Below, piece after piece: positions 3,436 through 20,009 of a stretch of DNA of 64,000 nucleotides. A program made the position numbers and the translations under genes. The stretch lies in NCBI GenBank assembly GCA_016716365.1, contig JADJWM010000017.1, positions 258,401 through 322,400 on the forward strand. The letters run 5' to 3'. Position 1 is the first letter of the stretch, and each line of letters starts with the position of its first letter. The stretch is from Chloracidobacterium sp. GTDB lineage: Bacteria > Acidobacteriota > Blastocatellia > Pyrinomonadales > Pyrinomonadaceae. Below the pieces are notes generated by a model. The model did not search any database and was not told the DNA's origin. It was given only the letters and a program-made list of their open reading frames with translations.

Positions 3436-3456
3436 AATTAGCGGCTGGCAGTCGGG

Positions 3457-4458: not shown

Positions 4459-7400
4459 ATGTTATCCACTCACGACGAAATGACGGTGGGCACAGATGCG
4501 CCTATTTTTGCCTCGCCGGCCGCGGTGACCTCCACCGATGAGGACGCGCCGGACGCGACGGCTCAGACGCTCGCATATTCCCCGCATCACATCGTTGGCG
4601 GCTCTCCGCACCCGGGAGTCATCGTGGAGACGCCCGGCCTCGCGAATGTCGAGCCCCCGCCGATTCGCTACCGCCCGCATCTGCCGAAGGAATTGTCCGA
4701 TAGCGGACGGCTCTCCGCGATGCAGCTCGAAAGGATCATCTACGCGGGCCAGGCGCACGAGCAACGACTCGCCGACGGCTCCCGAGCAGGCATCAGCATC
4801 GGCGACGGAACCGGGACGGGGAAAACGGCGACATTGGCCGGTGTGATCCTGGATAACTGGTTCCAGTGGAGACGCAGAGCTGTCTGGTTCTCGGTGAAGG
4901 CGGACCTAATCGAAGCTGTGTCGGCCGAGTTCGCGAGACTCGGGCTCGTGCCGCCGATAAGGTCGATAAACGATTTCCCGACCGACGACGAGATCTCCTT
5001 CGGCGACGGGATCGTCTTCTGCACCTACCGTTCTTTGATCGCGCGTTCGAAATCGGGCGGTCGCCGGATCGACCAGATCACACGCTGGCTCGGGAGCGAC
5101 GGGGTCGTGATCTTCGACGAGGGGCACAAAGCGAAGTACGCATTCGCGGACGATCGCGGCAAATCGACCCAAACGGGAGCGGCCGTGCTGGAGGTTCAGG
5201 AGCCGACGCGCTTCCCCGATGTAAGAGTCGTTTATTCCTCCGCCACCTCCGCCGGCGAGGTCCGCCACCTCGCATACATGTCGAGGCTGGGCCTCTGGGG
5301 CGAGGGGACCAATTTCCCGCTAGGGTTCGAGCAATTCGCCGAGGAGATCGAATCGGGCGGCGTGGGCGCTTTGGAGATGGTCTGCCGCGATCTGAAAGCG
5401 ATGGGCCGGTACCTTTGCGGGAACCTGAGCATGGGAACCGATCCGGAATCCGGTCTCGCCGTCGAGTTCCGCGAGGTGACCCACTGGCTCACCCCAGCGC
5501 AGCGGCGGATGTACGACAACATGGCGCAGGGGTGGCAAGAAGTCTTTCGGAACATCCACCGGGCTCTCGATCTTACGAATTCCGGCAAGGCAACACGCAG
5601 CCAGGCCGTCAACCAATTCTGGGCGGAACATCAAAGGTGCTTCAGGAATCTAATCACCGCGTTCAAGGTGCCAATCCTGATCCGCGAGATCGAGGACGCC
5701 TTGGGCCGAAAGGAGTCCGTGGTCGTCTCCATCACCGGAACCGGCGAGAGTCAGACGAAAAAACAGATCGAGCGGGCGGCCGACCAGGAAGAGGCGATCG
5801 ACGGCCTCGACTTCAGCCCGCGCGAGACGCTGACCCGGCTCGTCGCGAACTGCTTCCCGACCGCATGCTTTCAGGAGCGCACGAACCCGTACAGCGGAAC
5901 CATCGAATTCATTCCCGTTCTCGATCCGGATGGCAACCAGGTCGAGAGCCGAGCAGCCTTGCAGATGAGGGCCGAGCTACTAGACAAACTCTCCGTTCTC
6001 GAAGTTCCGGAGCACCCGCTCGATCAGCTGGTCAATTACTTCGGGGTCGAGAATGTGGCGGAGATGACGGGGCGAAAGAAACGTCTGATCCGCACAGCTT
6101 CGGGCACGCTTGAATATCGGCCCCGCCAACTTGCAGGCGTTCCGTCGAAGCTTGTCAACCTGCACGAGAAGAACGCGTTCCAGAACGGCGACAAGCGCAT
6201 CGCGATCATGTCGGAGGTCGCCTCGACGGGCGATAGCCTCCACGCCGGGCATCATGTTGGCAACAAGCAAAGGCGTCTCCACATCGCCGCGGAGCTGAAA
6301 TGGTCCGCCGACAAGCAGATCCAGGACTTCGGGCGCACCCATCGCACCGGGCAGGTCGCGCCGCCGGTATATCTGCTGGTGTTCACGGAACTCGGCGGCG
6401 AGAAACGATTCTCCGCGACCATCGCCCGCAGGCTCGGCAATATGGGGGCCCTCACCAAAGGGGACCGGCGTGCGGAGAAGGCGGGCAATCTCGATAAGTA
6501 CAACCTCGAATCGAAGGAGGGCCGTTCCGCTCTGAATGTCGTCCTTTCGAGCATCATGCGGGGGAGCGAGATCGGCGGCATCGAAGATCCTAAGCAGGCG
6601 CTGCGCGATATGGGACTTGTAAAGGTGGTGGATGGTGTGGAGCAGGTTCCCGAAGGCGAAAGGACGAACATCCCGCGATTTCTAAACCGTCTACTTTCGC
6701 TCGAAGTTGACCGGCAGAATGCGCTGTTCGATCACTTCTACGAGACATTTCTCGAAACGCTCGAATATCTGAAACAGAAGGGAAAACTGGACGACGGGAT
6801 GGAAGACCTGAAGGCCGCGTCCGTCGAGATCGCCGAACCTCCACAAGTGCTTCACTCCGATGTGCTCACTTCCGCGAAGACGGTCTACTATAAGCTCAAC
6901 CTGAAAGTGGCAACGAAACCTGCAAGATATTTGGAATTATCCGAAAGCGGGGTTCATCAGTTCTTTCAGGATCGGCGTGACGGCTCGTTCGTTGCGGTCC
7001 GTCGAACACTATCGCACACCGATCCGGAGACCGGGGAAAGATATCAGATGTTCTCTATCTCGAAGCCGATAGGCCGGAATCTCTCGTACGTCCGCGAGAG
7101 CGAATTGAATCAGAAATACCGCATCGTCCCAAAAGCGAAGGCGGAGAAATGGTGGCTACAAGAGGAAGCAAAGATCCCTCCGTATGAACACAAAGCGGTT
7201 CACCTTCTCAGCGGGGCACTTCTCCCGATATGGAAATACCTGAAAACTCTAAGCAAGGATGCTCTCGATATCGTTCGGACGACAACGGATGACGGCACCA
7301 GACTCGTCGGCGTTAAGATTTCCGAAGACCGTTTGCGCGATCTGTTTCGTCATTTCGGGTTGCGGTCCGACATTCCGTCCACGGCCCCCGAAGTGCTCAG

Positions 7401-7788
7401 GCTGGTCGACTTTGAAAACAACACCGTACAGCTCGACGGCGATATCCGAATCAAAACGTCCCGATTCCAGGGGCGTCTGCTTACCGAGATCTGCCCTTCG
7501 ACCTTTGAACAGATCCGCGAACTTCGAGGAATGGGTCTGGTCAATATCGTACAAAGTGGAAAACAGCGGTTTTTCCTTCCTGAACGATCCCCGGATGCTT
7601 ACCTCGAGCCGATCCTGGCACTCTACTCACCCAAATCCACCGACATCGATTTTCTGCCGGAGTTGGCAACCGAGTTTCGACCTGTTGAAGCGTCCGAGCC
7701 GATAGAACTCCCCGGATGGTTGGTCGAGCCTGTTCAAACGGAGATGATGAGTCTCAAAATATCAGAGGATACGCTGTTCGCGAGTTAA
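4459..7788 (+). CDS. Strawberry-notch-like SF2 helicase (large ICE/plasmid-type helicase)
   Basis: Walker A GDGTGTGKT (4801-4827). DEGH box (5116-5127). Helicase C region with HRTGQ. 1109 aa. Size and organisation match bacterial Sno homologues, which are usually fused to a methylase. Confidence 0.8.
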   Translation: MLSTHDEMTVGTDAPIFASPAAVTSTDEDAPDATAQTLAYSPHHIVGGSPHPGVIVETPGLANVEPPPIRYRPHLPKELSDSGRLSAMQLERIIYAGQAHEQRLADGSRAGISIGDGTGTGKTATLAGVILDNWFQWRRRAVWFSVKADLIEAVSAEFARLGLVPPIRSINDFPTDDEISFGDGIVFCTYRSLIARSKSGGRRIDQITRWLGSDGVVIFDEGHKAKYAFADDRGKSTQTGAAVLEVQEPTRFPDVRVVYSSATSAGEVRHLAYMSRLGLWGEGTNFPLGFEQFAEEIESGGVGALEMVCRDLKAMGRYLCGNLSMGTDPESGLAVEFREVTHWLTPAQRRMYDNMAQGWQEVFRNIHRALDLTNSGKATRSQAVNQFWAEHQRCFRNLITAFKVPILIREIEDALGRKESVVVSITGTGESQTKKQIERAADQEEAIDGLDFSPRETLTRLVANCFPTACFQERTNPYSGTIEFIPVLDPDGNQVESRAALQMRAELLDKLSVLEVPEHPLDQLVNYFGVENVAEMTGRKKRLIRTASGTLEYRPRQLAGVPSKLVNLHEKNAFQNGDKRIAIMSEVASTGDSLHAGHHVGNKQRRLHIAAELKWSADKQIQDFGRTHRTGQVAPPVYLLVFTELGGEKRFSATIARRLGNMGALTKGDRRAEKAGNLDKYNLESKEGRSALNVVLSSIMRGSEIGGIEDPKQALRDMGLVKVVDGVEQVPEGERTNIPRFLNRLLSLEVDRQNALFDHFYETFLETLEYLKQKGKLDDGMEDLKAASVEIAEPPQVLHSDVLTSAKTVYYKLNLKVATKPARYLELSESGVHQFFQDRRDGSFVAVRRTLSHTDPETGERYQMFSISKPIGRNLSYVRESELNQKYRIVPKAKAEKWWLQEEAKIPPYEHKAVHLLSGALLPIWKYLKTLSKDALDIVRTTTDDGTRLVGVKISEDRLRDLFRHFGLRSDIPSTAPEVLRLVDFENNTVQLDGDIRIKTSRFQGRLLTEICPSTFEQIRELRGMGLVNIVQSGKQRFFLPERSPDAYLEPILALYSPKSTDIDFLPELATEFRPVEASEPIELPGWLVEPVQTEMMSLKISEDTLFAS

Positions 7789-7984
7789 CAATTGAAAGTG
7801 GTCAAACACCGTATTCTTAAAAAATTGGTCTTAAAAAAGTAACTTCCGGGTCTTATGCGGGTTTTTAGTTATGTAGGTTGAATAGCGACAGGTGATTCAG
7901 ACGCATCCGGCACGGAAGGTCCGCGGGGATCAGAACGGTTTGCTCGAATGAACCTCTCGTCGACTCCATCAGAAAATCCGCCTT

Positions 7985-9073
7985 ATGAACAACCAAATTA
8001 ATGTCACGACCGTCGACACAGTATCGTTGATTCTAGAGGAGAAGATAGCGTTATACGCCCGGGTGCCTCATTACGTGCTTATAACCGGCGAGCGGGGGAC
8101 CGGCAAGACGACGATCGCCCGGCAGCTGCACGAGCAAAGCCCCAGATCGAAGCGGGAGTTCGTGAGCGTCAATTGTGCAAGCTTCACATCCGAGCTGCTG
8201 GAATCGGAGCTGTTCGGTTATGAGAAAGGAGCCTTCACAGGAGCAGCATCGGCGAAGGCCGGCCTGTTCGAGACGTCCGCGGGTGGGACCCTGTTCCTTG
8301 ACGAGATCGGCGATCTCACGCTGGGCCTCCAAGCGAAACTCCTTAAGGCGGTTGAAGAAAAACGCATCCGCCGGGTCGGCGGCACGTTCGAACGGGAGAT
8401 CGACGTCCGCATCGTGGCCGCCACATCCCGAAATCTGAAGGAGATGGTGAGACATGGGGCGTTTCGTCCCGATCTTTTCGACCGCCTCAACATACTGCAA
8501 CTCGAGACGATCCCGCTTCGGTTCCAGAGGGAACGGATTCGCGAGCTTTTCGTCAAGGAGATGGAAAGGCAGTCCGAGACGGTTGGCCGAACCTTGCCGT
8601 TTGAGATCGATGATGCGGCGGTGGAAGCTGTGCAATCACTCGAATGGAGAGGCAATTACCGTGAACTAAAGAACTTTGCCGTGCGGCTCGCCGTCGAAGC
8701 GATGGACGAAACCGCGATCACGGCCGAACTCGTCATTCAAATGGCTCGAGACGGTTGGGCAGGCGAGACGACAATTTGCTCTGCCAGCGAAGCTCGCTCC
8801 TCCGACATTTGGCACGAGCCTCGGCACACGAAGCAAAGCCTCGTGATGGTCACCTTTGATGCCGAAACCGATGACCTCGATACCGTGTACGTGAAGGCCG
8901 CGGCGACATTCATCGAGCATGCGTTGAAACAAAGCAACGGTAATCTTCGTCGTGCCGCTCGTTCCATGAACACCACGCATTCGACGCTTTCACGGATCCT
9001 CAAAAAGAACAACGAAAGGAAGGCTCGCATCGACGTGAGCTCAAACGGCCTTACTCTTTCGGCGGCGGCGTGA
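7985..9073 (+). CDS. Sigma54-dependent transcriptional activator (bEBP) lacking an N-terminal sensory domain
   Basis: Walker A GERGTGKT about 35 aa from the N-terminus. GAFTGA loop (8228-8245). Walker B LFLDEIGD. FRPDLFDRL. C-terminal Fis-type HTH NGNLRRAARSMNTTHSTLSRILKK. Confidence 0.9.
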   Translation: MNNQINVTTVDTVSLILEEKIALYARVPHYVLITGERGTGKTTIARQLHEQSPRSKREFVSVNCASFTSELLESELFGYEKGAFTGAASAKAGLFETSAGGTLFLDEIGDLTLGLQAKLLKAVEEKRIRRVGGTFEREIDVRIVAATSRNLKEMVRHGAFRPDLFDRLNILQLETIPLRFQRERIRELFVKEMERQSETVGRTLPFEIDDAAVEAVQSLEWRGNYRELKNFAVRLAVEAMDETAITAELVIQMARDGWAGETTICSASEARSSDIWHEPRHTKQSLVMVTFDAETDDLDTVYVKAAATFIEHALKQSNGNLRRAARSMNTTHSTLSRILKKNNERKARIDVSSNGLTLSAAA

Positions 9074-9343
9074 GCTGCTGGATATTCTTCTGGAATCCGT
9101 CGCTAAGCTCTCAGCTCAGTTTCATCCCTGGCGATCCAACACTAAGCCGTTCCTCGATCGGATTCGAACTCGAAGAAGTGTCGCTCGAAACCGCGAGTCG
9201 TAGTTCCCTCCTTTCAACTCCCATTTGAGCAATCTGCCCGATCCGGGCTTCCACCCTCAGCAGACACCCGTTTTCCCTCGCCTTCCGTGCGGAGATAGCG
9301 GACGAAATGAGCGGAAGACAGCGGTGTGGAAGGAGAGGAAAGC

Positions 9344-10474
9344 ATGGACATTCTGAACAGCGGCTCGTTCGTCACGCTCGACAATCGCGAAAAGATCGAT
9401 CAGCTCATCTACACCGCCCGGGAACTCGCGACCGAGGTGAGTCGCGCGGAAGGCTTCCAGAACGGCGGGCAGACCAATCATCAATTAGGACTCGAGATGT
9501 GGAAGGGGGCTGAGTACATGTGCAGGTCCCACGAGGAAGCAAACATCCGGAACCTATTTCTTAGCAAATTCCTCGAACGACTTCGCGAGATCGAAAAGGA
9601 AAGAGGTGCCCAGACCAAGTCGGTCGTCGCTACGCCGGATAGTAGTGCATTTATTCCGGTTCCGAAGACCGAGCCCGTTTCAACACAAACGCCTGCGATA
9701 ACGCAGGCGAGGCCGGAGCAGTCGCCACCTAACGAGGCCAGGGATGAGTACCTGGGAGTGCTTTCCGGTGAGGATGCCGAGAACAAGCGACCATCCTACG
9801 CCGACGAGTGCGTGCCGGAATGCGAAGCGGATATCGAGGCGATCGTGGACAGGCTCGATAATGAAAGTGCCGCCCCGGATGACAATCACCGATCCGGAGA
9901 GATCGGCACCCTCGCAGTGCAACCGGAGACAGGGGCAGTCTCCGAAGTTGGTGCCATCGAAACGGCGGCGGACCGTTCCGAATCCGTCGAACGAGGCGGC
10001 TCAAACGATGTCCCTGACGAAGAAGCCCGTCCCGACCTGACAGAACCCGTTGAGCCGGAGTCGATCCCGTCGATCGTTCTGGCCGAAAAAGAGCCGTACA
10101 ACCTCGACGCGTGCACCATCACTGCCGTCATCCAAGTGCTTCCGGAAGAGTCCGGGATACGCAAATGTGTTGTCAGCCTGCGAACCCACGATTTCGCGCC
10201 GGTGGTCACGGTCAGCGAGGGCGACGCCGGGGCGATCCTCCCGCACGTATCCGCCGCGTTGAACGACGCCTTGGCAAGATACCGGATCGATCTGCCCGCG
10301 AAAGCGGCCGACAAACTGAAGAAGCAAAAGCCCGCCGCCAAGAAACAAACTAAGTCAGGCGCGAAGCCGGCGAACGCAGCAACGGTTCCGTCCAATGCGC
10401 CAACCACGGTCGCCGCCTCTCCCGCCCCGAATCCCGAAACGGATCAAGGCCAGCGGGGGCTGTTCGCGTCCTGA
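9344..10474 (+). CDS. Hypothetical acidic low-complexity protein with Lys/Ala/Pro-rich tail (possibly PRTRC protein E-like)
   Basis: ATG at 9344 preceded by AGGAGAGG. Structured N-terminus, long D/E/P-rich middle, C-terminal KKQKPAAKKQTKSGAKPANA... tail. First gene of the coupled operon. Confidence 0.5.
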   Translation: MDILNSGSFVTLDNREKIDQLIYTARELATEVSRAEGFQNGGQTNHQLGLEMWKGAEYMCRSHEEANIRNLFLSKFLERLREIEKERGAQTKSVVATPDSSAFIPVPKTEPVSTQTPAITQARPEQSPPNEARDEYLGVLSGEDAENKRPSYADECVPECEADIEAIVDRLDNESAAPDDNHRSGEIGTLAVQPETGAVSEVGAIETAADRSESVERGGSNDVPDEEARPDLTEPVEPESIPSIVLAEKEPYNLDACTITAVIQVLPEESGIRKCVVSLRTHDFAPVVTVSEGDAGAILPHVSAALNDALARYRIDLPAKAADKLKKQKPAAKKQTKSGAKPANAATVPSNAPTTVAASPAPNPETDQGQRGLFAS

Positions 10475-10504
10475 ACCTACGCAAGAGTCCCAGGAGAATC
10501 GAAT

Positions 10505-10762
10505 ATGGAACAGAAGAAAGGAACACCGGCTTCTGAAGCGGCCGCCAGCGTGGAGCGCGTCACGGAGCCGAAGGCGACGATCAAGATCGAAGGGCAGGAG
10601 TTCGAGCTGGACGCCGCGTTGGCACAGGAGGACAAGACCTTGAAGGTCGTCCTCCAGCCGCACTTCGCCTCGGTCGAGAACGCGAACATCACGCGCGAGG
10701 TGAAGGAGGGGAAACTTACGGTCACGATCGTCAAGCGTGCCCAGCATAAGGGGGCTCGGTGA
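10505..10762 (+). CDS. Small protein, candidate ubiquitin-like (beta-grasp) modifier / PRTRC protein C-like
   Basis: 85 aa with AGGAGA RBS. The last ~60 aa alternate beta-like and helix-like segments (TIKIEGQEFELD..., KLTVTIVKR). GTGA overlap with the next gene. Sits in an operon with E2-like, JAB and E1-like genes. Confidence 0.45.
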   Translation: MEQKKGTPASEAAASVERVTEPKATIKIEGQEFELDAALAQEDKTLKVVLQPHFASVENANITREVKEGKLTVTIVKRAQHKGAR

Positions 10763-11001
10763 ACCTCGAAACCCCGCTCGATCTATTGATCGGCGAGACG
10801 GAACGAGTGAACCCGGCGATCCTCCTGGCCGAGGAGTTCATGCGAAGAGACGCCGCCGACCTTCTCAGCGCGGATGAGATAGATCGGGCGGCGGAGGTCC
10901 TGAACGACGGCCGGGCGGAGATCGAGACGATCAGGCGTCAGATCGCGGCCTTCGCGAGATCATCCCCGAGTGCGTCGAGCCGGACCCCGATAGGATTCTA
11001 G
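10759..11001 (+). CDS. Hypothetical protein (same frame as the next ORF, separated by one TAG)
   Basis: GTG start overlapping the previous stop. Ends at TAG 10999-11001. The following ORF starts at 11005 in the identical frame. Confidence 0.4.
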   Translation: MNLETPLDLLIGETERVNPAILLAEEFMRRDAADLLSADEIDRAAEVLNDGRAEIETIRRQIAAFARSSPSASSRTPIGF

Positions 11002-11004
11002 CCA

Positions 11005-11832
11005 GTGAGTGTACAGTTCAAGTCACCAAGTTCGAGCGAACGTGGGTTCGGCGAGCGGCTTTCGAGATCGCTCGAGTACCTAAGCTTCAAAGCCCGAAGT
11101 CACAACGCTATCGCGTCTTACGAACTTGTCGAACGAGTTCTCTCCGAGCAGCGAAAGTACGTGATGTATCGAGAGATGTTCCCGGCGGAGTGGAAGCGAT
11201 CAAGGGCAAGTCTGTACCGGCGCGGGTATTACACGAGGTACAGCGAGCGTGTGAACGAACTGTTCAATCTGGTCAATGAAAATTGTTTTCCGTTGCTGGA
11301 GTTCGCCTACGACGATCCGGAGAACGAGTTCGAGAAGTTCGCGATCCCGCCGATGAACGTCGATCTGTGCTGCGAGGAAATCTACTTCGAGAATCTGAAG
11401 GTCAGTTACGCCGCCGCGTTGATCTTTTGCGTCCCCGACGAGGCGTGGGACTTCCTGAACCATCGATTCAACTTGTCGAGAAGCGATTTTCCGGAAATAG
11501 TTGCCGATCCCCACCCGAACGTATGGGACGGAAAGAACGGCTGGCTGCTCGGGGAACTCTTGCGATTGGTCGATCACTCCACGGGCAATCCGTGGCTCGA
11601 CAGCAACTACTGCCAAACGGCCGATTGGTACGACTGGGACCGGGAAACGATCGCGGGGCTCACCGCCGAGTATGAAGCCGCCAACGAGGTCTTCGAAAAG
11701 CTTAACGTGCTCGACGAGATGATCGAGGTCGATCCGGGAAAGATGCTGCGGGCACTGATCGACTTCTGGAACACGGGCAAGCATCCGGGATTGGTGTTGC
11801 CATCGCCGCCCGCATCGGAGAACCATCTATGA
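11005..11832 (+). CDS. Hypothetical protein (with 10759-11001, possibly PRTRC protein F-like)
   Basis: 275-aa ORF with coding-like composition. ATGA overlap with the downstream ERF gene. Confidence 0.55.
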   Translation: MSVQFKSPSSSERGFGERLSRSLEYLSFKARSHNAIASYELVERVLSEQRKYVMYREMFPAEWKRSRASLYRRGYYTRYSERVNELFNLVNENCFPLLEFAYDDPENEFEKFAIPPMNVDLCCEEIYFENLKVSYAAALIFCVPDEAWDFLNHRFNLSRSDFPEIVADPHPNVWDGKNGWLLGELLRLVDHSTGNPWLDSNYCQTADWYDWDRETIAGLTAEYEAANEVFEKLNVLDEMIEVDPGKMLRALIDFWNTGKHPGLVLPSPPASENHL

Positions 11833-12326
11833 ACAAGAGCGAAAGCATCGCCAATCTCGCGAAATCCCTCGCCCTGGTGCAGGCGAATCTGGCACCGGCG
11901 AAGCGCGACTCCACCAACCCGTTCTTCAACTCGACGTACGCCGATCTCACCTCGGTGTGGGGGAGCTGTCGCGAACTCCTGGCTAAACACGGGCTCAGCG
12001 TGATCCAGGGTAACAGCATCGGGGCGAACAACACGGTCATCGTCGAGACGATCCTCGCTCATGAGTCGGGCCAGTGGATCCAAAGCGAGCTGTGCATGCC
12101 GCTCGCGAAGAACGATCCGCAGGGGGTCGGTTCGGCGATCACGTACGGCAGGCGTTACGGCTTGGCGGCGATTGTCGGGATAGTCGCCGACGACGATGAC
12201 GACGGGAACGCGGCATCGCTCAAGAGCGGCAACGGCCATGTCCAGCCCCCGACGAAGAACCAGCAACCGTCGTACCGCCGCCGTCCCGTCGGCCAGCCCG
12301 CGAACGGGTCCGTCCAGGTCAGTTGA
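11829..12326 (+). CDS. ERF-family single-strand annealing protein
   Basis: N-terminal IANLAKSLALVQANLAPAKRDSTNPFFNSTYADLTSVWGSCRELLAKHGLSVIQ matches the ERF-superfamily core pattern. Acidic DDDDD tail. Confidence 0.7.
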   Translation: MNKSESIANLAKSLALVQANLAPAKRDSTNPFFNSTYADLTSVWGSCRELLAKHGLSVIQGNSIGANNTVIVETILAHESGQWIQSELCMPLAKNDPQGVGSAITYGRRYGLAAIVGIVADDDDDGNAASLKSGNGHVQPPTKNQQPSYRRRPVGQPANGSVQVS

Positions 12327-12338
12327 CCGAAATCCGTC

Positions 12339-13016
12339 ATGCGAAATCACAAAGTCCCGCCGGATGCGGAAGCCGCCCTCTACTTCCTCCCCGGCCAGTA
12401 CTTATTCGAAGCGTTCCGTGAGAACGGACACGGGCTGAAGGCGTTGTCCAGCGTGCAGGTGACGAGGGCGTTTCGCGATCTTCAGACCGATACCGGGTGG
12501 ATAGATCGGAGAATATTAAGGTATCGCGAAGCGACGGACGGAATCGCGATTCTCTCGTTTCTTCCAGCAGGCTCGCGAACGATCACGGTGGCGTTTCCGA
12601 ACGACCGTGTCGAGGCGCTGACCCTGCCGCTCCCGACCTTGATCCTCCTCGGGAAGGGGAAAGACTACTATCTTTGGGCGGCCGGAACTTCGAAGGTGAC
12701 CCGGAGCACACGACTCGCCGTCGCTCCGTTGCCGAACATCGGCTCAGGGAAGATCTGCTTCGGGAAAAACGAGGTGCCGGAGACACATCCGTCCGCGCTT
12801 ACCACCATCTGGAAGCTCATTTTCGACGCGCCGTTCAACGGCGACCATTCGGCGGGGCGGTGCCAAACGGAGGACGACGTTCGCGACCTGCTCGCGAAGT
12901 TGGCCGCTGACAAAGTGAAGAAGTTTCCAACGCCGCAATTAATCATGTCGTCGAGCACCGTCGAGGACGCGTGGGAAAGCATAGTCGAACGTACCCGATA
13001 CGACAGTCGGTTTTAG
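12339..13016 (+). CDS. E2 (UBC)-like protein / PRTRC protein B-like
   Basis: LPNIGSGKICFG (12729-12764) resembles the eukaryotic E2 HPNI-x3-G-x-IC active-site motif. Candidate catalytic Cys codon at 12756-12758. Lies immediately upstream of the JAB and E1-like genes. Confidence 0.6.
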   Translation: MRNHKVPPDAEAALYFLPGQYLFEAFRENGHGLKALSSVQVTRAFRDLQTDTGWIDRRILRYREATDGIAILSFLPAGSRTITVAFPNDRVEALTLPLPTLILLGKGKDYYLWAAGTSKVTRSTRLAVAPLPNIGSGKICFGKNEVPETHPSALTTIWKLIFDAPFNGDHSAGRCQTEDDVRDLLAKLAADKVKKFPTPQLIMSSSTVEDAWESIVERTRYDSRF

Positions 13017-13029
13017 CACCGATTTTCTT

Positions 13030-13689
13030 ATGTCATCGAACCTCTTCGTTCCACCAAAACTTGTGGGGCATCGCATCGCTGCGTCTGAAAATGACCCGAT
13101 CGAAGCCGCGTTGTACGAATACCTTCTGGCCGGAAACGGGTTGTTCGTTCGGGCTAGACGCCGGGAGTTCGCCGTGTCGTTACCGGTCTGCACCCGGAAG
13201 ATCGTCGGACTCACGAACCAAACAGTGGGAATCTGGTGGACAACAAGGACGAAGATACGCGCGTCGTTGTGGAGCGAGATCTTGCAGCACAGTCAGAAAA
13301 CGCATACTTCGTCTTGTTTCAAGGAAGAAGTCTACCTGATCTATTGGGATAGACTTCTCGGCGCTTGGCGGTGGCGGGCTTCGGGCCGCGACAGCAATTG
13401 GGCATCGACGATCGCGGACGACAGCTTGCCCGAGTACGTGGAGTGCTGCATCGAACTGCACACCCACCCGCCCGGGGCTTTGAGCTTCAGCGCGGCAGAC
13501 GACCGCGACGAACTCGGAAAGTTCCGCATCTTCGCGATCCTCATCGATGTCCACGATAAGCCAAAGATACGGTTCCGCTGCGGCGTCTACGAACATCTTG
13601 TCCCGATCCCCGCCGCATGGGTCAGCGAGATGCCGGACGGCATCGTCGACCTCAACGAGATCGAGGCGCTTGTGGAGATGTTGTCGTGA
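13030..13689 (+). CDS. JAB/MPN (JAMM) metalloprotease / PRTRC protein A-like
   Basis: Exact JAMM motif H-T-H-PPGALSF-S-AA-D (HxHx7Sx2D) at 13459-13500. Confidence 0.8.
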   Translation: MSSNLFVPPKLVGHRIAASENDPIEAALYEYLLAGNGLFVRARRREFAVSLPVCTRKIVGLTNQTVGIWWTTRTKIRASLWSEILQHSQKTHTSSCFKEEVYLIYWDRLLGAWRWRASGRDSNWASTIADDSLPEYVECCIELHTHPPGALSFSAADDRDELGKFRIFAILIDVHDKPKIRFRCGVYEHLVPIPAAWVSEMPDGIVDLNEIEALVEMLS

Positions 13690-14534
13690 ACCGGATAGAT
13701 CTCAGCTTCGCGAACGCGGGCGTCGTGATGCCCAAAGAACATAACAAACTCCGGATCATACAGGTCGGTGCGGGCGGAACGGGATCGTTCGCGGCACTCG
13801 CCATCGCCCGGTTCCTGTACGAGCTGAAAGAGTCGGGAAAGGCAGCCGAAATGCTCATCATCGATCCGGATGTGGTCGAGGCCGGAAATATACCCCGAAG
13901 CAATTTCTGCGCTGCGGAGATAGGGAGTTTCAAGGCCCAGACTCTAGCGACTCGCATCGCGCTCGCGTGGGGGCTGGAATGCGGCTACGCGAACGAGAGA
14001 TTCGACGCCGAGGCGCATCTGAAGCAATCGTCGGGCGACTACCGCAACCTCACTGTGATCGTCGGTTGCGTGGACAACCACCTCGCGAGGCGCGAGATGC
14101 ACCTGGCCGTCGAAAAGCATCAGGGCTATAGATCGGACGACGCGCCGAACATCTGGTGGATCGACGGCGGTAACGGGAGATTCTCCGGGCAGGTACTTAT
14201 CGGCTCGAACGCGAAGCCGATGAAAGCCGTGAAGCTCTTCGTTGGTTCCAGCATCTGCCGATCCCTGCCCGCTCCGTCATTAGTTCATCCGGAGCTGCTG
14301 ACGGACTTGGAAAAAGCGACTAGGCCGATCACCCAAGTCTCGTGCCCGGACCGCGTTCGACTCGGAGAGCAGAGCCTGAATGTGAATCAGCGGGTCGCGG
14401 TCGAGATCGGCGAGATGCTCTCGGCAATGTTCCTTACACGAAATCTCCGACGCTTCGCGACCTACTTCGATCTCGAGACGGGGACGAGCCGTTCACTCTA
14501 CTGCACTCCGGATCAGATCGAATCAGCGACCTGA
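13686..14534 (+). CDS. ThiF/MoeB-type E1-like adenylating enzyme (PRTRC ThiF-like)
   Basis: Rossmann loop GAGGTG (13767-13784). IIDPDVVEAGNIPRSNF corresponds to DxDxVxxSNLxRQ. Also GCVDN. GTG at 13686 overlaps the JAB stop (GTGA). An alternative ATG lies at 13728. The track start at 13617 overlaps the JAB gene by 73 nt. Confidence 0.85.
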   Translation: MNRIDLSFANAGVVMPKEHNKLRIIQVGAGGTGSFAALAIARFLYELKESGKAAEMLIIDPDVVEAGNIPRSNFCAAEIGSFKAQTLATRIALAWGLECGYANERFDAEAHLKQSSGDYRNLTVIVGCVDNHLARREMHLAVEKHQGYRSDDAPNIWWIDGGNGRFSGQVLIGSNAKPMKAVKLFVGSSICRSLPAPSLVHPELLTDLEKATRPITQVSCPDRVRLGEQSLNVNQRVAVEIGEMLSAMFLTRNLRRFATYFDLETGTSRSLYCTPDQIESAT

Positions 14535-14549
14535 AGGAAGCGATAAGTT

Positions 14550-14879
14550 ATGTCGAGGCTTCTCACCGAAGAGCTTAGTAGATCTCTACCAAAACTGCGT
14601 GCTCAGGAGAGGTCGGAGGACCCAATCGTTCACGCGATCTTCTTCTTTCCATTGAGCGATTGGAAATGGTTCGTGACGGAAGGGGAACGGAACGGGAACG
14701 ATGTGACTTTTTTCGGCTATGTGGAAGGCTTTGAGGCCGAACTGGGCCATTTTACTTTAAGCGAACTCGGAGGCGTGGATATCGACGGGTTCAAGATCGA
14801 ACGCGTTGAGGATTTCGAGCCAGCACCGTTGCAACACTGCCTCGAACTCCACTCTGGCAGATCGAGAACAAGCGGTTGA
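14550..14879 (+). CDS. DUF2958 domain protein
   Basis: EDPIVHAIFFFPLSDWKWFVTEGERNGNDVTFFGYVEGFEAELGHFTLSEL matches the DUF2958 pattern common on conjugative elements. Confidence 0.7.
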   Translation: MSRLLTEELSRSLPKLRAQERSEDPIVHAIFFFPLSDWKWFVTEGERNGNDVTFFGYVEGFEAELGHFTLSELGGVDIDGFKIERVEDFEPAPLQHCLELHSGRSRTSG

Positions 14880-15226
14880 CGGAAGAGGCACATGGAACGT
14901 CAGCAATCAACAATTCAGGCGAATGGGCATCCGTCCATTCCGCCGACAAACTCGCTCGCGTCGTCGGTTCTGCGGAACATATTCGGACGTGGCTCACAAG
15001 AAATATCGGAAGAGCGATCCGATCACCAACGCGCCCCGGAGGACTGCGGGCGGGGGAAACAAACCGGCGCCGCAATGTCTGATTCACCAGCTTCAGCAAT
15101 GGCGAGGAATGCTATTGACCGCCTTTCCGCACGAAAGAGAGAGCAGCCGTCCGGCTTGGGATCGGCATCGACGAGGTTGAATCGCTGCCGTTCGATCTTT
15201 CGAGACTTGAGAGCGAAGGGATCTTC

Positions 15227-16321
15227 ATGAACATCGACTGCCGCGGATTCGGCTGTCTCGTCAGGCAGTTGGAGTGGAAGGCGCTTGGCGTAAAGCTGCC
15301 GGAAGATGCGGCCGTGCGGGTCAGCCCACCACGCGCCGGGTTGCTCCCTGATGTCTATCGAAACAAGCTGATGCGCGGCGCGGCTCAGGCACACCACGCG
15401 CTGAACCGATATAGTTTCCGGTTTACGCTCTGCGAAACGGTCTGGGGGACAAGCGAGTACAAGTGGATCCCTTGGGGTGCGTTCGAGCAGTTCGAGACGG
15501 AATATCTGAAAGCGAACGAAACGCTTGCGGCGGCGAAGGCGGAGACGCTTGGGAATTACGACGACATCCTAACCGTCCTGCAAGATAGTTTCTACAAACT
15601 CGCGGAAGACTCGGCGGACCGGTTCCAGGCGACCACGAGCGAGCCTTTCGACCGGGCCGAGTTCATCAATGCGGTCGCGGCCCAGGCGATCGGGATGGTG
15701 CCGACTCCGGCGATGATCAGAGACGGTCTGACGATTGAGATGAGGCCCAAGGTGGTAATCCTGGGTTCGGAGGTGGCCGCCGAACAGAAATTGACGCGCG
15801 AATTAAGACTCGAGGCAACGCGGGCGGAAACGGAGACCCGTGCCGTCGAGATCGAAGCGAAGACCAGGAACAACATCGAGCGGCTGAAAGTGGCCGGCTT
15901 TGAGGAAGACCAGCGCCGCGAGCGAGAGGTCAAGGAACGAATACGCGATATGAAGATCGAGGCGGCCCGCCGCGAGGCGGAGGAGGCGGTCTCGCCGATC
16001 AAGGAAGGTCTGGCCCAGATCGCCGCGAGGATATGCGAAGCGGCGCAGGAGATGTCCGTGCGGCTGAAAGATGCGAACTTCGTACCGGGCAGCCTCGCGA
16101 AACGGGCCCGCCAGATGTGCGAATGGTACAGCCTCATGAACTTCACGGGTGATGACTCTCTCGAAGACGTGCTCGCCAAATTGCAGGACGCCGCCGGCCG
16201 CGAAGCCAAGCAGCGCTCCCCGGAAGAGATGCGGGACGCCCTCAACGATGTCCTGCGTGCGACCACCGTTCAGTCCAGAAAACTCCTCGACGAAGACCGA
16301 CTATCAGCCCTCGAACTCTGA
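15227..16321 (+). CDS. Hypothetical protein with E/R-rich coiled-coil centre
   Basis: 364-aa ORF. Central EATRAETETRAVEIEAKTRNNIERLKVAGFEEDQRREREVKERIRDMKIEAARREAEE segment. No recognised catalytic motif. Confidence 0.55.
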   Translation: MNIDCRGFGCLVRQLEWKALGVKLPEDAAVRVSPPRAGLLPDVYRNKLMRGAAQAHHALNRYSFRFTLCETVWGTSEYKWIPWGAFEQFETEYLKANETLAAAKAETLGNYDDILTVLQDSFYKLAEDSADRFQATTSEPFDRAEFINAVAAQAIGMVPTPAMIRDGLTIEMRPKVVILGSEVAAEQKLTRELRLEATRAETETRAVEIEAKTRNNIERLKVAGFEEDQRREREVKERIRDMKIEAARREAEEAVSPIKEGLAQIAARICEAAQEMSVRLKDANFVPGSLAKRARQMCEWYSLMNFTGDDSLEDVLAKLQDAAGREAKQRSPEEMRDALNDVLRATTVQSRKLLDEDRLSALEL

Positions 16322-16376
16322 TTTCGGCCGTCGAGCGTGCGACCCACGATCGAAAAAATCGACAAACCAAACGAAC

Positions 16377-17996
16377 ATGACGACTACCGAACCGGACGCC
16401 AGGAGCGTCGATAGATTCCTGCGCGAACTCGACGTGCGGATAAGAGCCCGCTACCCCTTGATAGCCATCAACACATACGAGGAGGATCGGGTTCGCGAAG
16501 CTCTGATCGATCTCGTATTTCAGGAGCGGCATAAGGAGAAACCGCTGTACATCTGGAGCCGGCCCGCGGGCCTGCAGAAAGTGTTCGATCCGAAGGAGGG
16601 CATCCTTCAGAACCCAGTATCGGTCGGCGACACGGAGGACCCGGAGGGCGTTCTGGGTTTCATCTCGGAACAGAAGACGGGGCTCTTCTTGCTGTGCGAC
16701 TATGCCCCCTACATCTCCCCGTACGGTCAGGAAGATCCGTTACTGGTTCGCCGACTTCGAGAGATCGCCTGGAAGCTGAAATCCACCAAAGCGACGGTAC
16801 TGTTCGTCGCCCCGAACTTTCCCGACCTGAAGACGCTGGAAAAGGAAATAACGCAGATCGACCTCGAACTACCGAAGGAGGGCGAGATCGAGGAGTCGAT
16901 CGAGCTGCAGCTTGAGAATCTTCGATCGAGCGGGCTGGCCATCGATCTCGAGAAAGAGACGCAGGGCGCTTTGCTTCAGTCTCTCCTCGGGCTTACCGCC
17001 GGGGAGATCAGCAACGTGATCGCGAAGGCCGTGATCAGCTGCAACGGCCTCAATCGGGAATCGATCAACGTCATCCTCGAAGAGAAGAAGAACGTGATCC
17101 GCGGCAGCGGCTCGCTGACCTATGTCCATCCAGAGCCCGCGAGCAATCTCGGCGGTTATCGAGCTTTGCGATCGATTCTTGAGCGTGCCGCGTACACCTT
17201 CAGCCCGCGAGCGAAGGCCCGGCACGTCGAACCGTGCAAGGGAATACTGCTTGTCGGATTGCCCGGATGCGGAAAAGATCTTTGCAAGCGGGTCGCATCG
17301 TCGATCACCAACCGCGCCCTGCTAGATCTCGATTTCGGGTCGATCATGGGCGAGGGGGGCGGCGTCATCGGCTCGTCGGCGATGTCTATCAAGCGGGCCC
17401 TGTCGATCGCGGGGACGATCAAGGGGATCCTCGGAATCAGTGAATTCGAGAAAGCGGTCTCCGGGATGAAGTCGTCGAACAAGACCGACGGTGGTGAAAC
17501 GGCCCGGACGATCTCCTACCTGCTCAACTGGATGCAGGACAACAAGGACGTGCTCGTGTTCGCGACCGCAAACGACGTTCGCGAACTCGAATCGGAGCAG
17601 TTCCGCATCGGCCGGTTCTCTTACATCCACTTCGTCGATCTCCCTGACATGGAGGATCGGTCCGAGATCTTCAAGGTTCATTTGAAGAAACGCGAACTGG
17701 TTCCCGAACAGTTCGACCTCGAAAAGCTCGTCGATAAGAGCAAGGACTTCTCCGGAGCGGAGATCGAAGCGGCGGTGAAGGACGGCGTGCTGGAAGCTTT
17801 TATCGACGGCGACCGCCCGGCGGAAACGCGGGACATCCTCAAGGCGGTCGAGGGCATAACGCCGACCGCCCAGATGATGAGCGAGAAGATCGAGGAGATC
17901 CGCAAATGGGCTCGCAACAATATCAAAGGAGCGGCGGGCAGGACCGGCAGTCAAGCAATTGGCGGCAATCGCGGCGACCGGGTCTACGAATTTTGA
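16377..17996 (+). CDS. AAA+ ATPase (classic AAA clade) with atypical Walker A and B residues
   Basis: GLPGCGKD (17256-17279), ILGISE (17427-17444), sensor-1 FATAN, FRIGRFS, and a C-terminal lid (FSGAEIEAAVKDG). ATG at 16377 is chosen because the track start at 16149 overlaps the upstream gene by 173 nt. Confidence 0.85.
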   Translation: MTTTEPDARSVDRFLRELDVRIRARYPLIAINTYEEDRVREALIDLVFQERHKEKPLYIWSRPAGLQKVFDPKEGILQNPVSVGDTEDPEGVLGFISEQKTGLFLLCDYAPYISPYGQEDPLLVRRLREIAWKLKSTKATVLFVAPNFPDLKTLEKEITQIDLELPKEGEIEESIELQLENLRSSGLAIDLEKETQGALLQSLLGLTAGEISNVIAKAVISCNGLNRESINVILEEKKNVIRGSGSLTYVHPEPASNLGGYRALRSILERAAYTFSPRAKARHVEPCKGILLVGLPGCGKDLCKRVASSITNRALLDLDFGSIMGEGGGVIGSSAMSIKRALSIAGTIKGILGISEFEKAVSGMKSSNKTDGGETARTISYLLNWMQDNKDVLVFATANDVRELESEQFRIGRFSYIHFVDLPDMEDRSEIFKVHLKKRELVPEQFDLEKLVDKSKDFSGAEIEAAVKDGVLEAFIDGDRPAETRDILKAVEGITPTAQMMSEKIEEIRKWARNNIKGAAGRTGSQAIGGNRGDRVYEF

Positions 17997-18015
17997 GGAC
18001 GGTGTTCAAGAGGTT

Positions 18016-18414
18016 ATGAGCAAGTACATGTCATTCGAATCGCAGTCGTTTGCGAACGGCGAGCTGCTGCTCGAAGCCCTGTCGGAATTAGGATTCGCGA
18101 CCGTCGTGCAGGGTAAGGACCTGCCCTTGGACGGTTGGGACAAGCGAGCGGGGCGGACCGCCGACATCATCATTCGCCGGCGGGACGTCAAGGCTCACAA
18201 CCTTCTCGCGGACGTCGGCTTTCAGAGAACGTCGTCGGGCTACATCGCCGTGATCGACGACATGGATCTCGATCATCGCCTGGGCCGCGACTTCGTCGTG
18301 CGTTTGCAGAATCAATATCACGAAGCCGCGGCCCGGAAGATGGCGAAAAAGCTCGGCGGAACCTTGGTCAAGGAGCGGATCGGGAAAACCGTGAAGATCC
18401 GGGTCAGATTTTGA
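18016..18414 (+). CDS. DUF1257 domain protein
   Basis: MSKYMSFESQSF..GELLLEALSELGF....VGFQRTSSGYIAVIDD resembles the DUF1257 pattern. ATG at 18016 preceded by AAGAGG. Confidence 0.6.
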   Translation: MSKYMSFESQSFANGELLLEALSELGFATVVQGKDLPLDGWDKRAGRTADIIIRRRDVKAHNLLADVGFQRTSSGYIAVIDDMDLDHRLGRDFVVRLQNQYHEAAARKMAKKLGGTLVKERIGKTVKIRVRF

Positions 18415-18427
18415 AGGAGCGCTACCT

Positions 18428-18622
18428 ATGGCTGAAATCGAATTCACCATCGACACCGAGACGGGGAGTTGCGAAACGAAGATCAACGGCATCCAAGGGT
18501 CATCCTGCGAGAAGACTGCCCGCCAATTAAGGGAGGTTCTCGGGACCCCGACGACGGATCGGAAGACGGCGGAGTATCACGTCACACCTGCGGTGCGGAG
18601 GCGAGTGGGCCCCCGTGAATAA
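18428..18622 (+). CDS. DUF2997 domain small protein
   Basis: MAEIEFTIDTETGSCETKINGIQGSSCEKTARQLREVLG resembles the DUF2997 pattern with two Cys. RBS GAAGGAG. Confidence 0.6.
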   Translation: MAEIEFTIDTETGSCETKINGIQGSSCEKTARQLREVLGTPTTDRKTAEYHVTPAVRRRVGPRE

Positions 18623-19292
18623 CGAAGTGGTGTTCGTGCTGGAGCCGGACGCGGGACGCGTCACCGTCGAGATCTCGCAGGCTTCCGGGCAGGCGGCGAA
18701 CGATCTCGCACAAGATCTGGGTAGACGCGTAGACCTGAACTGCGCGAAGCCGGCCAGTGACACGAGATACTTGCCCGTTCTACAGCCTCACCCCGCGACC
18801 GAAGACGAATCGAAAACGGACCCTTTCTCGATCTGGCTGTACCGGCTTTACCATAACTCGGTCGTCGACGGTCCCGGCCGCCGCAGCGTCATACAGACCG
18901 CGGGATGCTCGATCCGCTGCAGGCAATGCTTCGTGCCTCAGACCCATGACCGGAAAAACGGTGCGTTAGTCCCGCTCTCGTCAATATTGAAGGAGATCAT
19001 CTCCTATGGCGCAGACCACGACGGTGTAACCATCCTCGGCGGCGAGCCGTTCGACCAACCGGAACCCGTCGCCGAACTCGTGTCGAGGTTGAAGGACCGA
19101 GGGATCCATATAACGGTTTACTCCGGATACACCATCGAGCAACTAATCGAGCGACGGGCTTCGAGTGTCGACTACATCCTCACCCATATCGACCTGCTCA
19201 TCGATGGTCCGTTCATCGGCAGCATGCGTGATGGAGCGGGCGAGTATCGAGGGTCGCGGAATCAGCGAATCGTTGGGCTGACCAATCAATAA
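18615..19292 (+). CDS. NrdG/PflA-like radical SAM activating-enzyme family protein with ~75-aa N-terminal extension
   Basis: VVDGPGRRSVIQTAGCSIRCRQCFVPQTH with CX3CX2C at 18906-18929. GVTILGGEPF. GTG start overlaps the DUF2997 gene by 8 nt. Confidence 0.8.
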   Translation: MNNEVVFVLEPDAGRVTVEISQASGQAANDLAQDLGRRVDLNCAKPASDTRYLPVLQPHPATEDESKTDPFSIWLYRLYHNSVVDGPGRRSVIQTAGCSIRCRQCFVPQTHDRKNGALVPLSSILKEIISYGADHDGVTILGGEPFDQPEPVAELVSRLKDRGIHITVYSGYTIEQLIERRASSVDYILTHIDLLIDGPFIGSMRDGAGEYRGSRNQRIVGLTNQ

Positions 19293-19387
19293 TACCGTTG
19301 AGCAGGTGATTGATCGGCGCGAATACGTTCCGGTGGTGCAAAAACGCTCAATCAACCCCCCAAGATTCCGACCTACACCACGGTCGA

Positions 19388-19922: not shown

Positions 19923-20009
19923 TGGTGCGGACGAGAAGAATCGAACTTCCACTGCCTTGCGGCAACAGGCTTCTGAGACCTGCGCGTCTACCAGTTCCGC
20001 CACGTCCGC
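19923..20009 (-). tRNA. tRNA-Leu (anticodon CAG)
   Basis: Hand-folded cloverleaf: acceptor GCGGACG/CGTCCGC, anticodon stem CAGGT/GCCTG with loop CTCAGAA, long variable arm, T-loop TTCGATT, discriminator A, encoded CCA. Confidence 0.9.

Follow-up and report, generated by a model that had tools for sequence, protein, structure and literature searches.

The bacterial systems closest to the locus described here are the operons of class 6d, which Iyer, Burroughs and Aravind predicted computationally in 2006, Anabaena species included, and which were later named PRTRC (PMC1779556). The class was defined there by a ubiquitin-like protein (Ubl) with a C-terminal Gly, an E2-like protein that is devoid of the HPN His and has a conserved Cys, a JAB protein with an N-terminal alpha+beta extension, an E1-like protein, and a fast-diverging alpha-helical protein. 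Relatives that have been studied experimentally in bacteria are Bil, CBASS Cap2/Cap3, and Bub, and the demonstration of protein conjugation by Bil, CBASS Cap2, and Bub has made Ubl conjugation in bacteria an active field. Here, we examined a 64,000-nucleotide (nt) stretch of a Chloracidobacterium sp. assembly (contig JADJWM010000017.1, positions 258,401 to 322,400; hereafter, the window), in which a cassette of eight genes at 9344-14534 displays all the features of the 6d definition. We consider it likely, with a probability of roughly 70%, that this cassette is a functional PRTRC/6d Ubl-conjugation module, carried on a family of integrative islands of Pyrinomonadaceae-type Acidobacteria. Judged by its sequences, it is a diverged branch of the 6d/PRTRC class that is shared with Nostocales plasmids. 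The class has been known by computation since 2006, and the acidobacterial/cyanobacterial branch is a distinct, well-conserved variant of it, not a new kind of system.

The cassette and its place in the PRTRC class

All eight genes of the cassette lie on the plus strand, are intact, and are closely packed. Three junctions are true stop/start overlaps, as an earlier note on this DNA had read them (GTGA at 10759, ATGA at 11829, and GTGA at 13686), and the remaining junctions are spaced by 3 to 15 nt. The genes, with the evidence for each (aa, amino acids), are as follows:

9344-10474, plus strand: PRTRC-E-like protein, 376 aa (Nostocales homology of its C-terminal domain)
10505-10762, plus strand: Ubl precursor, 85 aa (predicted beta-grasp; profile match to PRTRC_C/Prok_Ub)
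10759-11001, plus strand: H80, an alpha-helical 80-aa protein (start overlaps the Ubl stop, GTGA)
11005-11832, plus strand: all-alpha 275-aa protein (positional analogue of PRTRC protein F)
11829-12326, plus strand: ERF-family single-strand annealing protein (Pfam ERF, 1e-29)
12339-13016, plus strand: E2-like conjugating enzyme, 225 aa (Pfam Prok-E2_D, 4.8e-21; PRTRC_B, 2e-16)
13030-13689, plus strand: JAMM/JAB metallopeptidase, 219 aa (Prok-JAB, 4.8e-5; PRTRC_A, 2e-7)
13686-14534, plus strand: ThiF-type E1-like adenylating enzyme, 282 aa (PRTRC_ThiF, 8.9e-36)

Translation of the window reproduces the motifs that had been singled out earlier, i.e., a JAMM motif HxHx7Sx2D at 13459-13500 that reads HTHPPGALSFSAAD, an E2-like LPNIGSGKIC at 12729-12758, and a ThiF/E1 nucleotide loop from 13767 that reads GAGGTGSFAALAIARF... 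onward. An E1 start at the upstream ATG at 13617 was discarded, as the gene most likely begins at GTG 13686 (282 aa), as it does in relatives.

The likeness to PRTRC (TIGR03734-TIGR03742) concerns gene order, family matches, and individual residues alike. The order of E-like protein, Ubl, alpha-helical protein, E2-like protein, JAB with extension, and ThiF-type E1 is shared; PRTRC_B, PRTRC_A, and PRTRC_ThiF are the best NCBIfam matches of the three enzymes, with B and A being the sole ones; and the E2 has LPN for HPN with an invariant Cys, the Ubl has a conserved C-terminal Gly, and carriage is on apparently mobile DNA. Close homologues bear the JGI label "PRTRC genetic system protein B." The gene order E-C-F-B-A-ThiF that the earlier note had quoted matches the canonical Cupriavidus plasmid cassette, ParB-E-C-F-B-A-ThiF, and its core claim, that of a diverged and reduced PRTRC-like Ubl/E2/JAB/E1 cassette in a non-proteobacterial host, holds by hidden Markov model (HMM) matches, profile comparison, and synteny: The PRTRC, Prok-E2_D, and Prok-JAB models match the cassette enzymes far beyond chance. 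The ~350-aa region that it had listed after the ~80-aa protein is not a single unit but two genes, at 10759-11001 (80 aa) and 11005-11832 (275 aa).

Several differences set the window apart from PRTRC. It has no ParB, no ParM-like protein D, and no detectable PRTRC_F homologue; the absence of the first two had been remarked upon before, and no island protein matches either of them in Pfam or NCBIfam (TIGR03734 and TIGR03739). Conversely, the window side has an additional 80-aa protein, which relatives carry as a fusion to the Ubl; ERF is inserted in part of the clade; and the E-like protein has an extra N-terminal domain. The cassette is located on a chromosomal island that lacks conjugation genes and is linked to an AAA-DUF1257-DUF2997-radical SAM module. 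The neighbors of the canonical cassette are ParB and an SNF2 helicase.

Among 72,556 plasmids searched, 424 plasmid records contained E1 homologues, and the closest of these lay on cyanobacterial plasmids (35-43% identity, compared to 22-30% for canonical PRTRC ThiF). The Nostocales cassettes, such as that on pANACY.02 of Anabaena cylindrica PCC 7122, are the closest relatives outside the Acidobacteria, with the same 35-43% identity for E1, ~30% for E2, ~33% for JAB, and ~40% for Ubl, and with the same six-gene order, in which both the E-like C-terminal domain and the 275-aa protein have their homologues. They differ in that Ubl and H80 are fused (144 aa), the E-like protein is 155 aa long and ends in a perfect QLTLF, and ERF is missing. 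Furthermore, they reside on conjugative plasmids, and on pANACY.02, the cassette is found between a primase-polymerase gene and genes for DnaN, DnaX, DNA polymerase, and HolA. A 98-kb Bacteroidota plasmid from Tunicatimonas (L008, 15059-17259) harbors both a PRTRC-type cassette, seemingly without a separate JAB gene, and a Bub-type set consisting of DUF6527, ThiF, and multiubiquitin proteins.

Upon scanning one genome per species, we found 74 related loci, 65 of which were in metagenome-assembled genomes (MAGs) of Acidobacteria and 8 in Nostocales. The gene order of the cassette was conserved in ~65 acidobacterial and 9 cyanobacterial loci, the conserved order running methylase, Strawberry-notch helicase, activator, E, Ubl, H80, 275-aa, (ERF), E2, JAB, E1, DUF2958, ..., 364-aa, AAA, DUF1257, (DUF2997), and radical SAM. 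In at least 16 Pyrinomonadaceae-type MAGs, we observed two to four diverged copies of the whole ~17-kb island, which suggests a family of coexisting elements. The right flanks varied as well, with tRNA-Leu plus yggS/yggT in the window and in loci L001, L010, and L011, a tyrosine integrase in L029, and AbiEii/AbiEi, Schlafen/AlbA_2, HNH-repeat, or IS1 genes elsewhere. Because of these differing right flanks and the two to four copies per genome, the island looks like a putatively mobile family of integrative elements. The host, which had been described as unusual and non-proteobacterial-looking, is a soil acidobacterium of Pyrinomonadaceae type, to judge from the source names of near-identical proteins and from loci L009-L011. 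It is thus indeed non-proteobacterial but no oddity, as Pyrinomonadaceae-type MAGs commonly contain the cassette, and in several copies.

The ubiquitin-like protein, its enzymes, and their companions

With 611 homologues, the 85-aa Ubl is evidently a real and strongly conserved gene. Alignment revealed an almost invariant core of 62 residues, ending in ...VKRAQHKG, which is preceded by a variable N-terminal tail and followed by 0 to 8 variable residues. In the window, the core ends with the invariant His-Lys-Gly83 (Gly codon at 10751-10753), followed by an Ala-Arg tail that is probably removed. AlphaFold2 predicted a beta-beta-alpha-beta-beta core for the Ubl, with an overall predicted local distance difference test score (pLDDT) of 76 and of 84-90 for the block, and the top Foldseek matches of this model were ubiquilin UBL domains, ubiquitin, and protein G/L beta-grasp domains. 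The Foldseek E-values were weak (best 0.026, with a probability of 0.98), yet all of them indicate one fold. When the family profile was compared with two PRTRC_C sequences by hhalign, the two aligned from end to end, including the terminal KG (94.3%, E = 1e-7), and the canonical PRTRC_C proteins used in this comparison are Prok_Ub themselves. The earlier suggestion that the 85-aa protein is a beta-grasp candidate thus found support in both the predicted fold and the PRTRC_C/Prok_Ub profile match. The homology was visible profile-to-profile only: Searched directly against the Prok_Ub and PRTRC_C HMMs of Pfam and NCBIfam, the Ubl gave no match at E ≤ 10, and pairwise BLASTP with canonical PRTRC C gave a marginal C-terminal match (E = 0.022).

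The Ubl is also the best-conserved protein of the cassette, with a median identity of 83% (56 loci), as compared to 71% for JAB, 69% for E2, 68% for E1, 55% for the 275-aa protein, and 45% for the E-like protein. Its core is almost invariant while the enzymes of the same copies differ by 30-40%, which therefore points to purifying selection. The sequence behind the Lys-Gly is, by contrast with the core, variable. Across 65 acidobacterial loci, we counted 27 distinct tails of 0 to 6 residues after the invariant KG, and one copy was fused to the next gene. In nine of nine Nostocales loci, a single 144-aa polypeptide comprises both the Ubl and the 80-aa protein (...KKAGTKG directly followed by LGD...ISGF). 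A profile search of 1.84 billion representative proteins extended this picture to 141 alignable members of the wider family, 135 of which have KG at the end of the Ubl domain. An H80-like extension of 41 to 140 residues was present in 99 of the 141 and a longer fusion in 11, while only 7 ended at the last domain residue (6 of these in Lys-Gly). The variable tails and the frequent fusion after Lys-Gly therefore imply an endoproteolytic maturation of the Ubl, i.e., a tag that would normally be synthesized as a precursor from which a peptidase must expose the Gly, akin to eukaryotic ubiquitin. Eukaryotic ubiquitin precursors (ubiquitin-ribosomal protein fusions and polyubiquitin) are likewise made with a C-terminal extension and released by a peptidase at the terminal Gly, and there, too, the tag is the most conserved component. 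They differ from the window in ending in Gly-Gly instead of Lys-Gly and in sharing no detectable sequence similarity with it; moreover, the maturing enzyme here would be the JAMM peptidase of the same operon.

Some of the more distant Ubl relatives (P0391, P0395, P0508, P0447, and P0505) are fused to other domains after the KG. One of these domains displays a weak ParB/sulfiredoxin similarity (PDB, E = 0.07-0.1) and no Pfam or NCBIfam match, so that its ParB identity is tentative; another fusion consists of DUF3102 followed by the E-like C-terminal domain. Such fusions hint at a possible translational coupling between the tag and the "ParB-related" part of PRTRC. Among the PADLOC models, "C3a152, type III-C specific" also matches the Ubl (7.7e-7). 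We do not take this for a sign of a CRISPR role, since the cassette on pANACY.02 abuts a type III CRISPR-Cas locus (L005, 1-7700) and the model was probably built from genes that merely neighbor CRISPR loci.

The three enzymes of the window were aligned with acidobacterial, cyanobacterial, Bacteroidota, and canonical proteobacterial PRTRC proteins. The E2-like protein scored 75.7 bits with Pfam Prok-E2_D, far above the gathering threshold of 25, and its catalytic Cys140 (codon 12756-12758) lies within the motif LPNIGSGKICFG. Residues P130, N133, G137, Cys140, and G142 are invariant, with Cys140 found in nine diverse members. An E2-like protein had been proposed from the start, in line with its membership of Prok-E2_D and with the invariance of Cys140 out to canonical PRTRC_B. 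The "conserved His downstream of the Cys" of the 2006 type 6d is, however, not invariant in the acidobacterial/cyanobacterial branch. In the JAB, the codons of the catalytic residues E99, H144, H146, S154, and D157 were checked, and all five residues are invariant out to canonical PRTRC_A. The JAB domain comprises residues 112-182 and is preceded by an N-terminal extension of ~110 aa that aligns with PRTRC_A (match over residues 30-192). Its Prok-JAB score of 23.7 bits is slightly under the gathering score of 25, and its match to solved structures in the PDB is marginal only.

For the E1, the GAGGTG loop (13767-13784), D60, N68, R71, K83, and D130 are invariant in seven diverse members, together with a single invariant cysteine, Cys220 (14343-14345). 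Its best NCBIfam match is PRTRC_ThiF, at 123.4 bits and over almost the full model length, and an Anabaena relative scores 136.7 bits with the same model. When its profile was searched against the PDB, conjugating enzymes ranked first (NEDD8 E1 at 1e-9, Uba1 and UBA6 at ~7e-8, and Cap2 at 2e-7), with E. coli ThiF (5e-5) and BubCD (1.5e-3) ranking lower.

The other proteins of the cassette were less easily placed: The E-like, Ubl, 80-aa, and 275-aa proteins had no useful match in Pfam and NCBIfam at E ≤ 10, and pairwise BLASTP of the window counterparts against canonical PRTRC E and F gave no match. In the E-like protein, an N-terminal domain is followed by a small alpha/beta domain, a low-complexity tail rich in K, A, and P, and, at the extreme C terminus, a Q-x-x-L-F motif (QRGLF, 10451-10465). 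Although no NCBIfam or Pfam model matched it, including that of protein E (TIGR03741), it resembles protein E in position and in architecture (small domain, low-complexity tail, and short hydrophobic C-terminal motif), and the 155-aa protein encoded upstream of the Ubl on Nostocales plasmids is a homologue of its C-terminal domain. While the overall identity among acidobacterial copies ranges from 35 to 94% (median 45%), nearly all of the ~55 complete copies end in Q-x-x-L-F-[AT]-[SAQ], with two shifted by one or two residues, and nine of nine cyanobacterial E-like proteins end in NQLTLF (e.g., with QLTLF at 9308-9322 of L005). The motif resembles a sliding-clamp-binding peptide, for which Dalrymple et al. 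reportedly put forward the consensus QL[SD]LF in 2001, and would be a candidate clamp-binding tail. On the Nostocales plasmids, a gene for a DnaN of their own follows the cassette at a distance of a few genes.

H80, which has no Pfam or NCBIfam match, ends in an invariant P-x-G-F in 58 acidobacterial copies (10990-11001 in the window), an ending that its fused forms share and that may be a docking peptide. In the wider Ubl family, 78 of 150 representative members end in GF. The 275-aa protein has 159 homologues and diverges fast (51-99% identity, median 55%) around invariant Cys, His, Asp, and Trp residues, e.g., in a DHSTGNPWLD motif. AlphaFold2 modeled it as all helical (pLDDT 77), and Foldseek found no PDB fold match. 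A homologue occupies the same position on Nostocales plasmids at 24-26% identity. We rejected homology to PRTRC F/alpha-hel2, given an hhalign probability of 0.2% and no HMM match; the 275-aa protein is a candidate adaptor, E3-like factor, or substrate.

Mechanism, role, and alternatives

Conservation in sequence, from which every step is inferred, suggests the following mechanism. The JAB would cut the Ubl precursor after Lys82-Gly83, which would remove Ala-Arg in the window and separate the fused H80 in relatives. The ThiF-type E1, probably a homodimer, would then adenylate Gly83 and load the Ubl onto Cys220 as a thioester, whereupon the Ubl would pass to Cys140 of the E2. The E2 would conjugate it to lysines of target proteins, with the 275-aa protein and/or the E-like protein perhaps acting as adaptor or substrate, and the same JAB could reverse the modification. 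What the module does for its carrier is less certain. We favor control of the element's own replication, recombination, or establishment over antiphage defense because its constant neighbors are DNA-transaction genes (in Acidobacteria, ERF, DUF2958, the methylase, and the Strawberry-notch helicase) and because the module sits in the element backbone in all three branches. The clamp-binding-like C terminus of the E-like protein, the lack of PADLOC matches for E2 and JAB, and a search of IMG/VR that found no relative speak for it as well.

Several points weigh against the reading of the cassette as a functional conjugation module with such a role. The enzymes score below the PRTRC cut-offs, i.e., 60 versus 131.45 bits for B (TIGR03737), 30.7 versus 101.8 for A (TIGR03735), and 123.4 versus 144.75 for ThiF (TIGR03736). 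The Gly is internal in most family members, so it is conceivable that the beta-grasp is permanently an N-terminal domain and not a transferable tag. The E2 assignment stands on the family match and the conserved Cys, with a putative UBC fold, and no solved structure in the PDB copy searched was sequence-detectable for this family. Cys220 of the E1 is a candidate catalytic residue, assigned by conservation alone. Any E3 or substrate is putative. The function of PRTRC had been called experimentally undefined, and the literature searched indeed contained no experimental study of PRTRC and no experimental evidence for any PRTRC/6d member. Last, the proposed role derives from gene neighborhood alone, and the examples of Bil, CBASS Cap2, and Bub demonstrate that modules of a related kind can serve immunity or the response to stress.

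This last point leads to the alternative that the cassette is a Bil-like antiphage or anti-plasmid defense, in which the Ubl is conjugated to an invader protein (e.g., a tail or replication protein) and blocks its function. We consider this unlikely. The bacterial Ubl/E1/E2/JAB operons that have been studied (Bil and CBASS Cap2/Cap3) are immune systems; Bil of types I and II shares with the window separate genes for Ubl, E2, JAB/JAMM, and E1 and, as is expected of both, thioester chemistry with catalytic cysteines. The AAA ATPase of the island matches PADLOC IetA (4.5e-19), the radical SAM enzyme has a weak pVip match, and AbiEii and Schlafen/AlbA_2 genes lie just outside several island copies. 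These flanking defense genes are, however, variable and outside the conserved unit. PADLOC gave no match for the window E2 or JAB, none for the Ubl except C3a152, and only weak CBASS E1-E2 matches for the E1. The E1 of Bil is of the IAD-AAD-CYS type (an inactive and an active adenylation domain in tandem, with a Cys domain in addition), whereas the window E1 is a single, small 282-aa ThiF domain. The genomic setting differs from that of Bil as well: Canonical and cyanobacterial cassettes are located in the plasmid replication/partition backbone, beside ParB, primase-polymerase, or DnaN, and a genome with two to four diverged copies, all of them accompanied by the same element backbone, better fits element maintenance.

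The other immune or stress-related modules are also built differently. Bub (6E/DUF6527) is likewise a bacterial Ubl/E1/E2/peptidase module, and Citrobacter BubCD gave weak matches to the window proteins (E1 at 1.5e-3 and JAB at 0.08). Its intermediates are oxyesters on Tyr and Ser, its peptidase is a DUF6527 serine protease, and its proteins are fused, whereas the window has invariant cysteines in E1 and E2 and no DUF6527 protein. CBASS type II Cap2/Cap3 combines E1 and E2 activities with a JAB peptidase, and the E1 profile matches Cap2, as mentioned above. Cap2, however, is an E2-E1 fusion that conjugates the CD-NTase itself, without a separate Ubl, in contrast to the dedicated Ubl and separate enzymes of the window.

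Within the favored reading of element control, one specific scenario is a bacterial counterpart of the ubiquitylation and SUMOylation of PCNA. Here, the Q-x-x-L-F of the E-like protein would dock on the beta clamp and bring Ubl, E1, E2, and JAB to the replisome. Reversible attachment of the Ubl there, whether to the clamp or to replication and recombination proteins of the element (ERF, a ParB-like protein, or primase), would then license or limit element replication. We regard this as a long shot.

A sulfur carrier of the ThiS/MoaD/QbsE/CysO type, in which the E1 would adenylate and thiocarboxylate the small protein, the JAB would do no more than trim its tail or release a product, and the sulfur would go to a metabolite or to nucleic-acid modification, is very improbable. 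QbsD/QbsE and Mec+/CysO do combine a small ThiF-type E1 and a beta-grasp protein ending in Gly with tail trimming by a JAMM protein, the radical SAM gene conserved in the island is perhaps a partner, and NCBIfam ThiF/MoeB models match the E1 weakly (4e-8 to 2.5e-3). These matches amount to 16-33 bits against cut-offs of 152-449, and conjugating E1s outrank ThiF in the PDB search. The E1 contains neither a rhodanese domain nor CxxC zinc motifs, and the radical SAM gene is unlinked to the cassette in cyanobacteria. The E2-like protein, with its invariant active-site Cys, is never missing, and no sulfur-carrier pathway is known to need one. In the 74 related loci, the E1 adjoins E2 and JAB with no Moa or Thi genes, in agreement with the earlier view that it is not a MoeB/ThiF sulfur enzyme, and Cys, rhodanese, and cysteine-desulfurase genes were also found in none of the loci inspected.

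That the cassette is a decaying, nonfunctional remnant of a plasmid cassette in a dead island is scarcely credible: The window copy has no integrase, and truncated copies (L001, L039, and L026) and copies with split helicase, activator, or JAB genes (L004 and L023) do occur, but the eight genes of the window are all complete and close together, with stop/start overlaps, every catalytic residue is in place, and the purifying selection on the Ubl core extends across copies whose enzymes have diverged by 30-40%.

As a conjugation module, this branch offers clean predictions, namely cleavage at Lys-Gly before the variable tail or fused protein, single candidate catalytic cysteines in E1 and E2, a mono-Gly remnant that trypsin would generate for mass spectrometry, and natural Ubl fusions as precursors. 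The candidate clamp-binding tail points to the replisome as a site of action. If control of mobile-element replication or establishment is the true role, this would be a use of Ubl tagging in bacteria that is distinct from immunity, and it would also bear on the origin of ubiquitin signaling.

The island and its other genes

The cassette is embedded in a conserved island of which the following features were mapped:

2212-19630, plus strand: whole conserved island, ~17 kb (Pfam scans, tRNA scan, and synteny)
7985-9073, plus strand: sigma-54-type AAA+ activator (Sigma54_activat, 9.7e-62)
14550-14879, plus strand: DUF2958 protein (Pfam DUF2958, 4e-5; synteny)

From left to right, the island encodes a DUF3854-like protein, an N6 methylase, the Strawberry-notch helicase, the sigma-54 activator, and the cassette, followed by DUF2958, a 364-aa protein, the AAA ATPase, DUF1257, a DUF2997-like protein, the radical SAM enzyme, and an 80-aa open reading frame (ORF) on the minus strand. 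It is bordered by a TonB-receptor gene on the left and by tRNA-Leu (19923-20009, minus strand) on the right. At the left border, no direct (att) copy of the 3' terminus of tRNA-Leu of 14 nt or longer was found. Where genomes hold several copies of the island (L013-L071), the copies have diverged to an E2 identity of 62-88%, and two pairs lie on one contig each (L021/L029 and L035/L040). A phage origin was rejected, as no relative was found in IMG/VR and only eight distant ThiF matches appeared, mostly in large phage genomes.

The genes around the cassette are kept to different degrees. ERF and the sigma-54 activator had been reported as present in place of the missing ParB and ParM-like components, and both are; ERF is merely accessory, being found between the 275-aa and E2 genes in 26 of ~63 acidobacterial loci and absent from the remainder and from cyanobacteria, for which reason we take it to be an accessory insertion. 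DUF2958 follows the E1 in 53 acidobacterial loci, and a sigma-54-type activator directly precedes the E-like gene in 41 loci. This activator consists of an AAA+ domain and a C-terminal helix-turn-helix only, without a receiver or sensor domain. No sigma-54 promoter consensus was found in the spacer upstream of the cassette (9073-9344), and matches across the window were below chance.

Some copies of the island are incomplete. One genome has no left arm of the island, and L039 and L026 are also without parts. The copy in L001 is 5'-truncated, having lost the Ubl gene and kept the last 90 codons of the 275-aa gene. L001 is a 6.99-Mb record labeled Leptolyngbya sp. 7M (CP070897.1), which has an acidobacterial-type island at the same tRNA-Leu/yggS/yggT site, with proteins 54-87% identical to those of the window, and the organism label may not fit the sequence. 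The Strawberry-notch helicase is divided over two ORFs in L004 (1273-4608) and in L023, where the activator and JAB are split as well, and in L074 (8633-9625), JAB and E1 apparently form one 330-aa ORF. These split and fused genes indicate decay or assembly errors in some copies.

On the right side of the cassette, the plus strand of the window at 16386-19292 encodes the AAA ATPase, DUF1257, the DUF2997-like protein (a 64-aa ORF at 18428-18622), and a Fer4_12 radical SAM enzyme, a set that accompanies the cassette in most acidobacterial loci that are long enough to show it. The AAA ATPase (PF00004 plus AAA_lid_3), i.e., the protein with the IetA match, is the most conserved protein of the island, with a median identity of 88%. 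With a classical-clade AAA unfoldase beside a Ubl system, one may suppose that the unfoldase acts on conjugates. The minus-strand 80-aa ORF (19391-19630) that separates the radical SAM gene from tRNA-Leu has no family match, is kept at the same position in L001 and L010, and may encode an excisionase-like or regulatory protein of the island.

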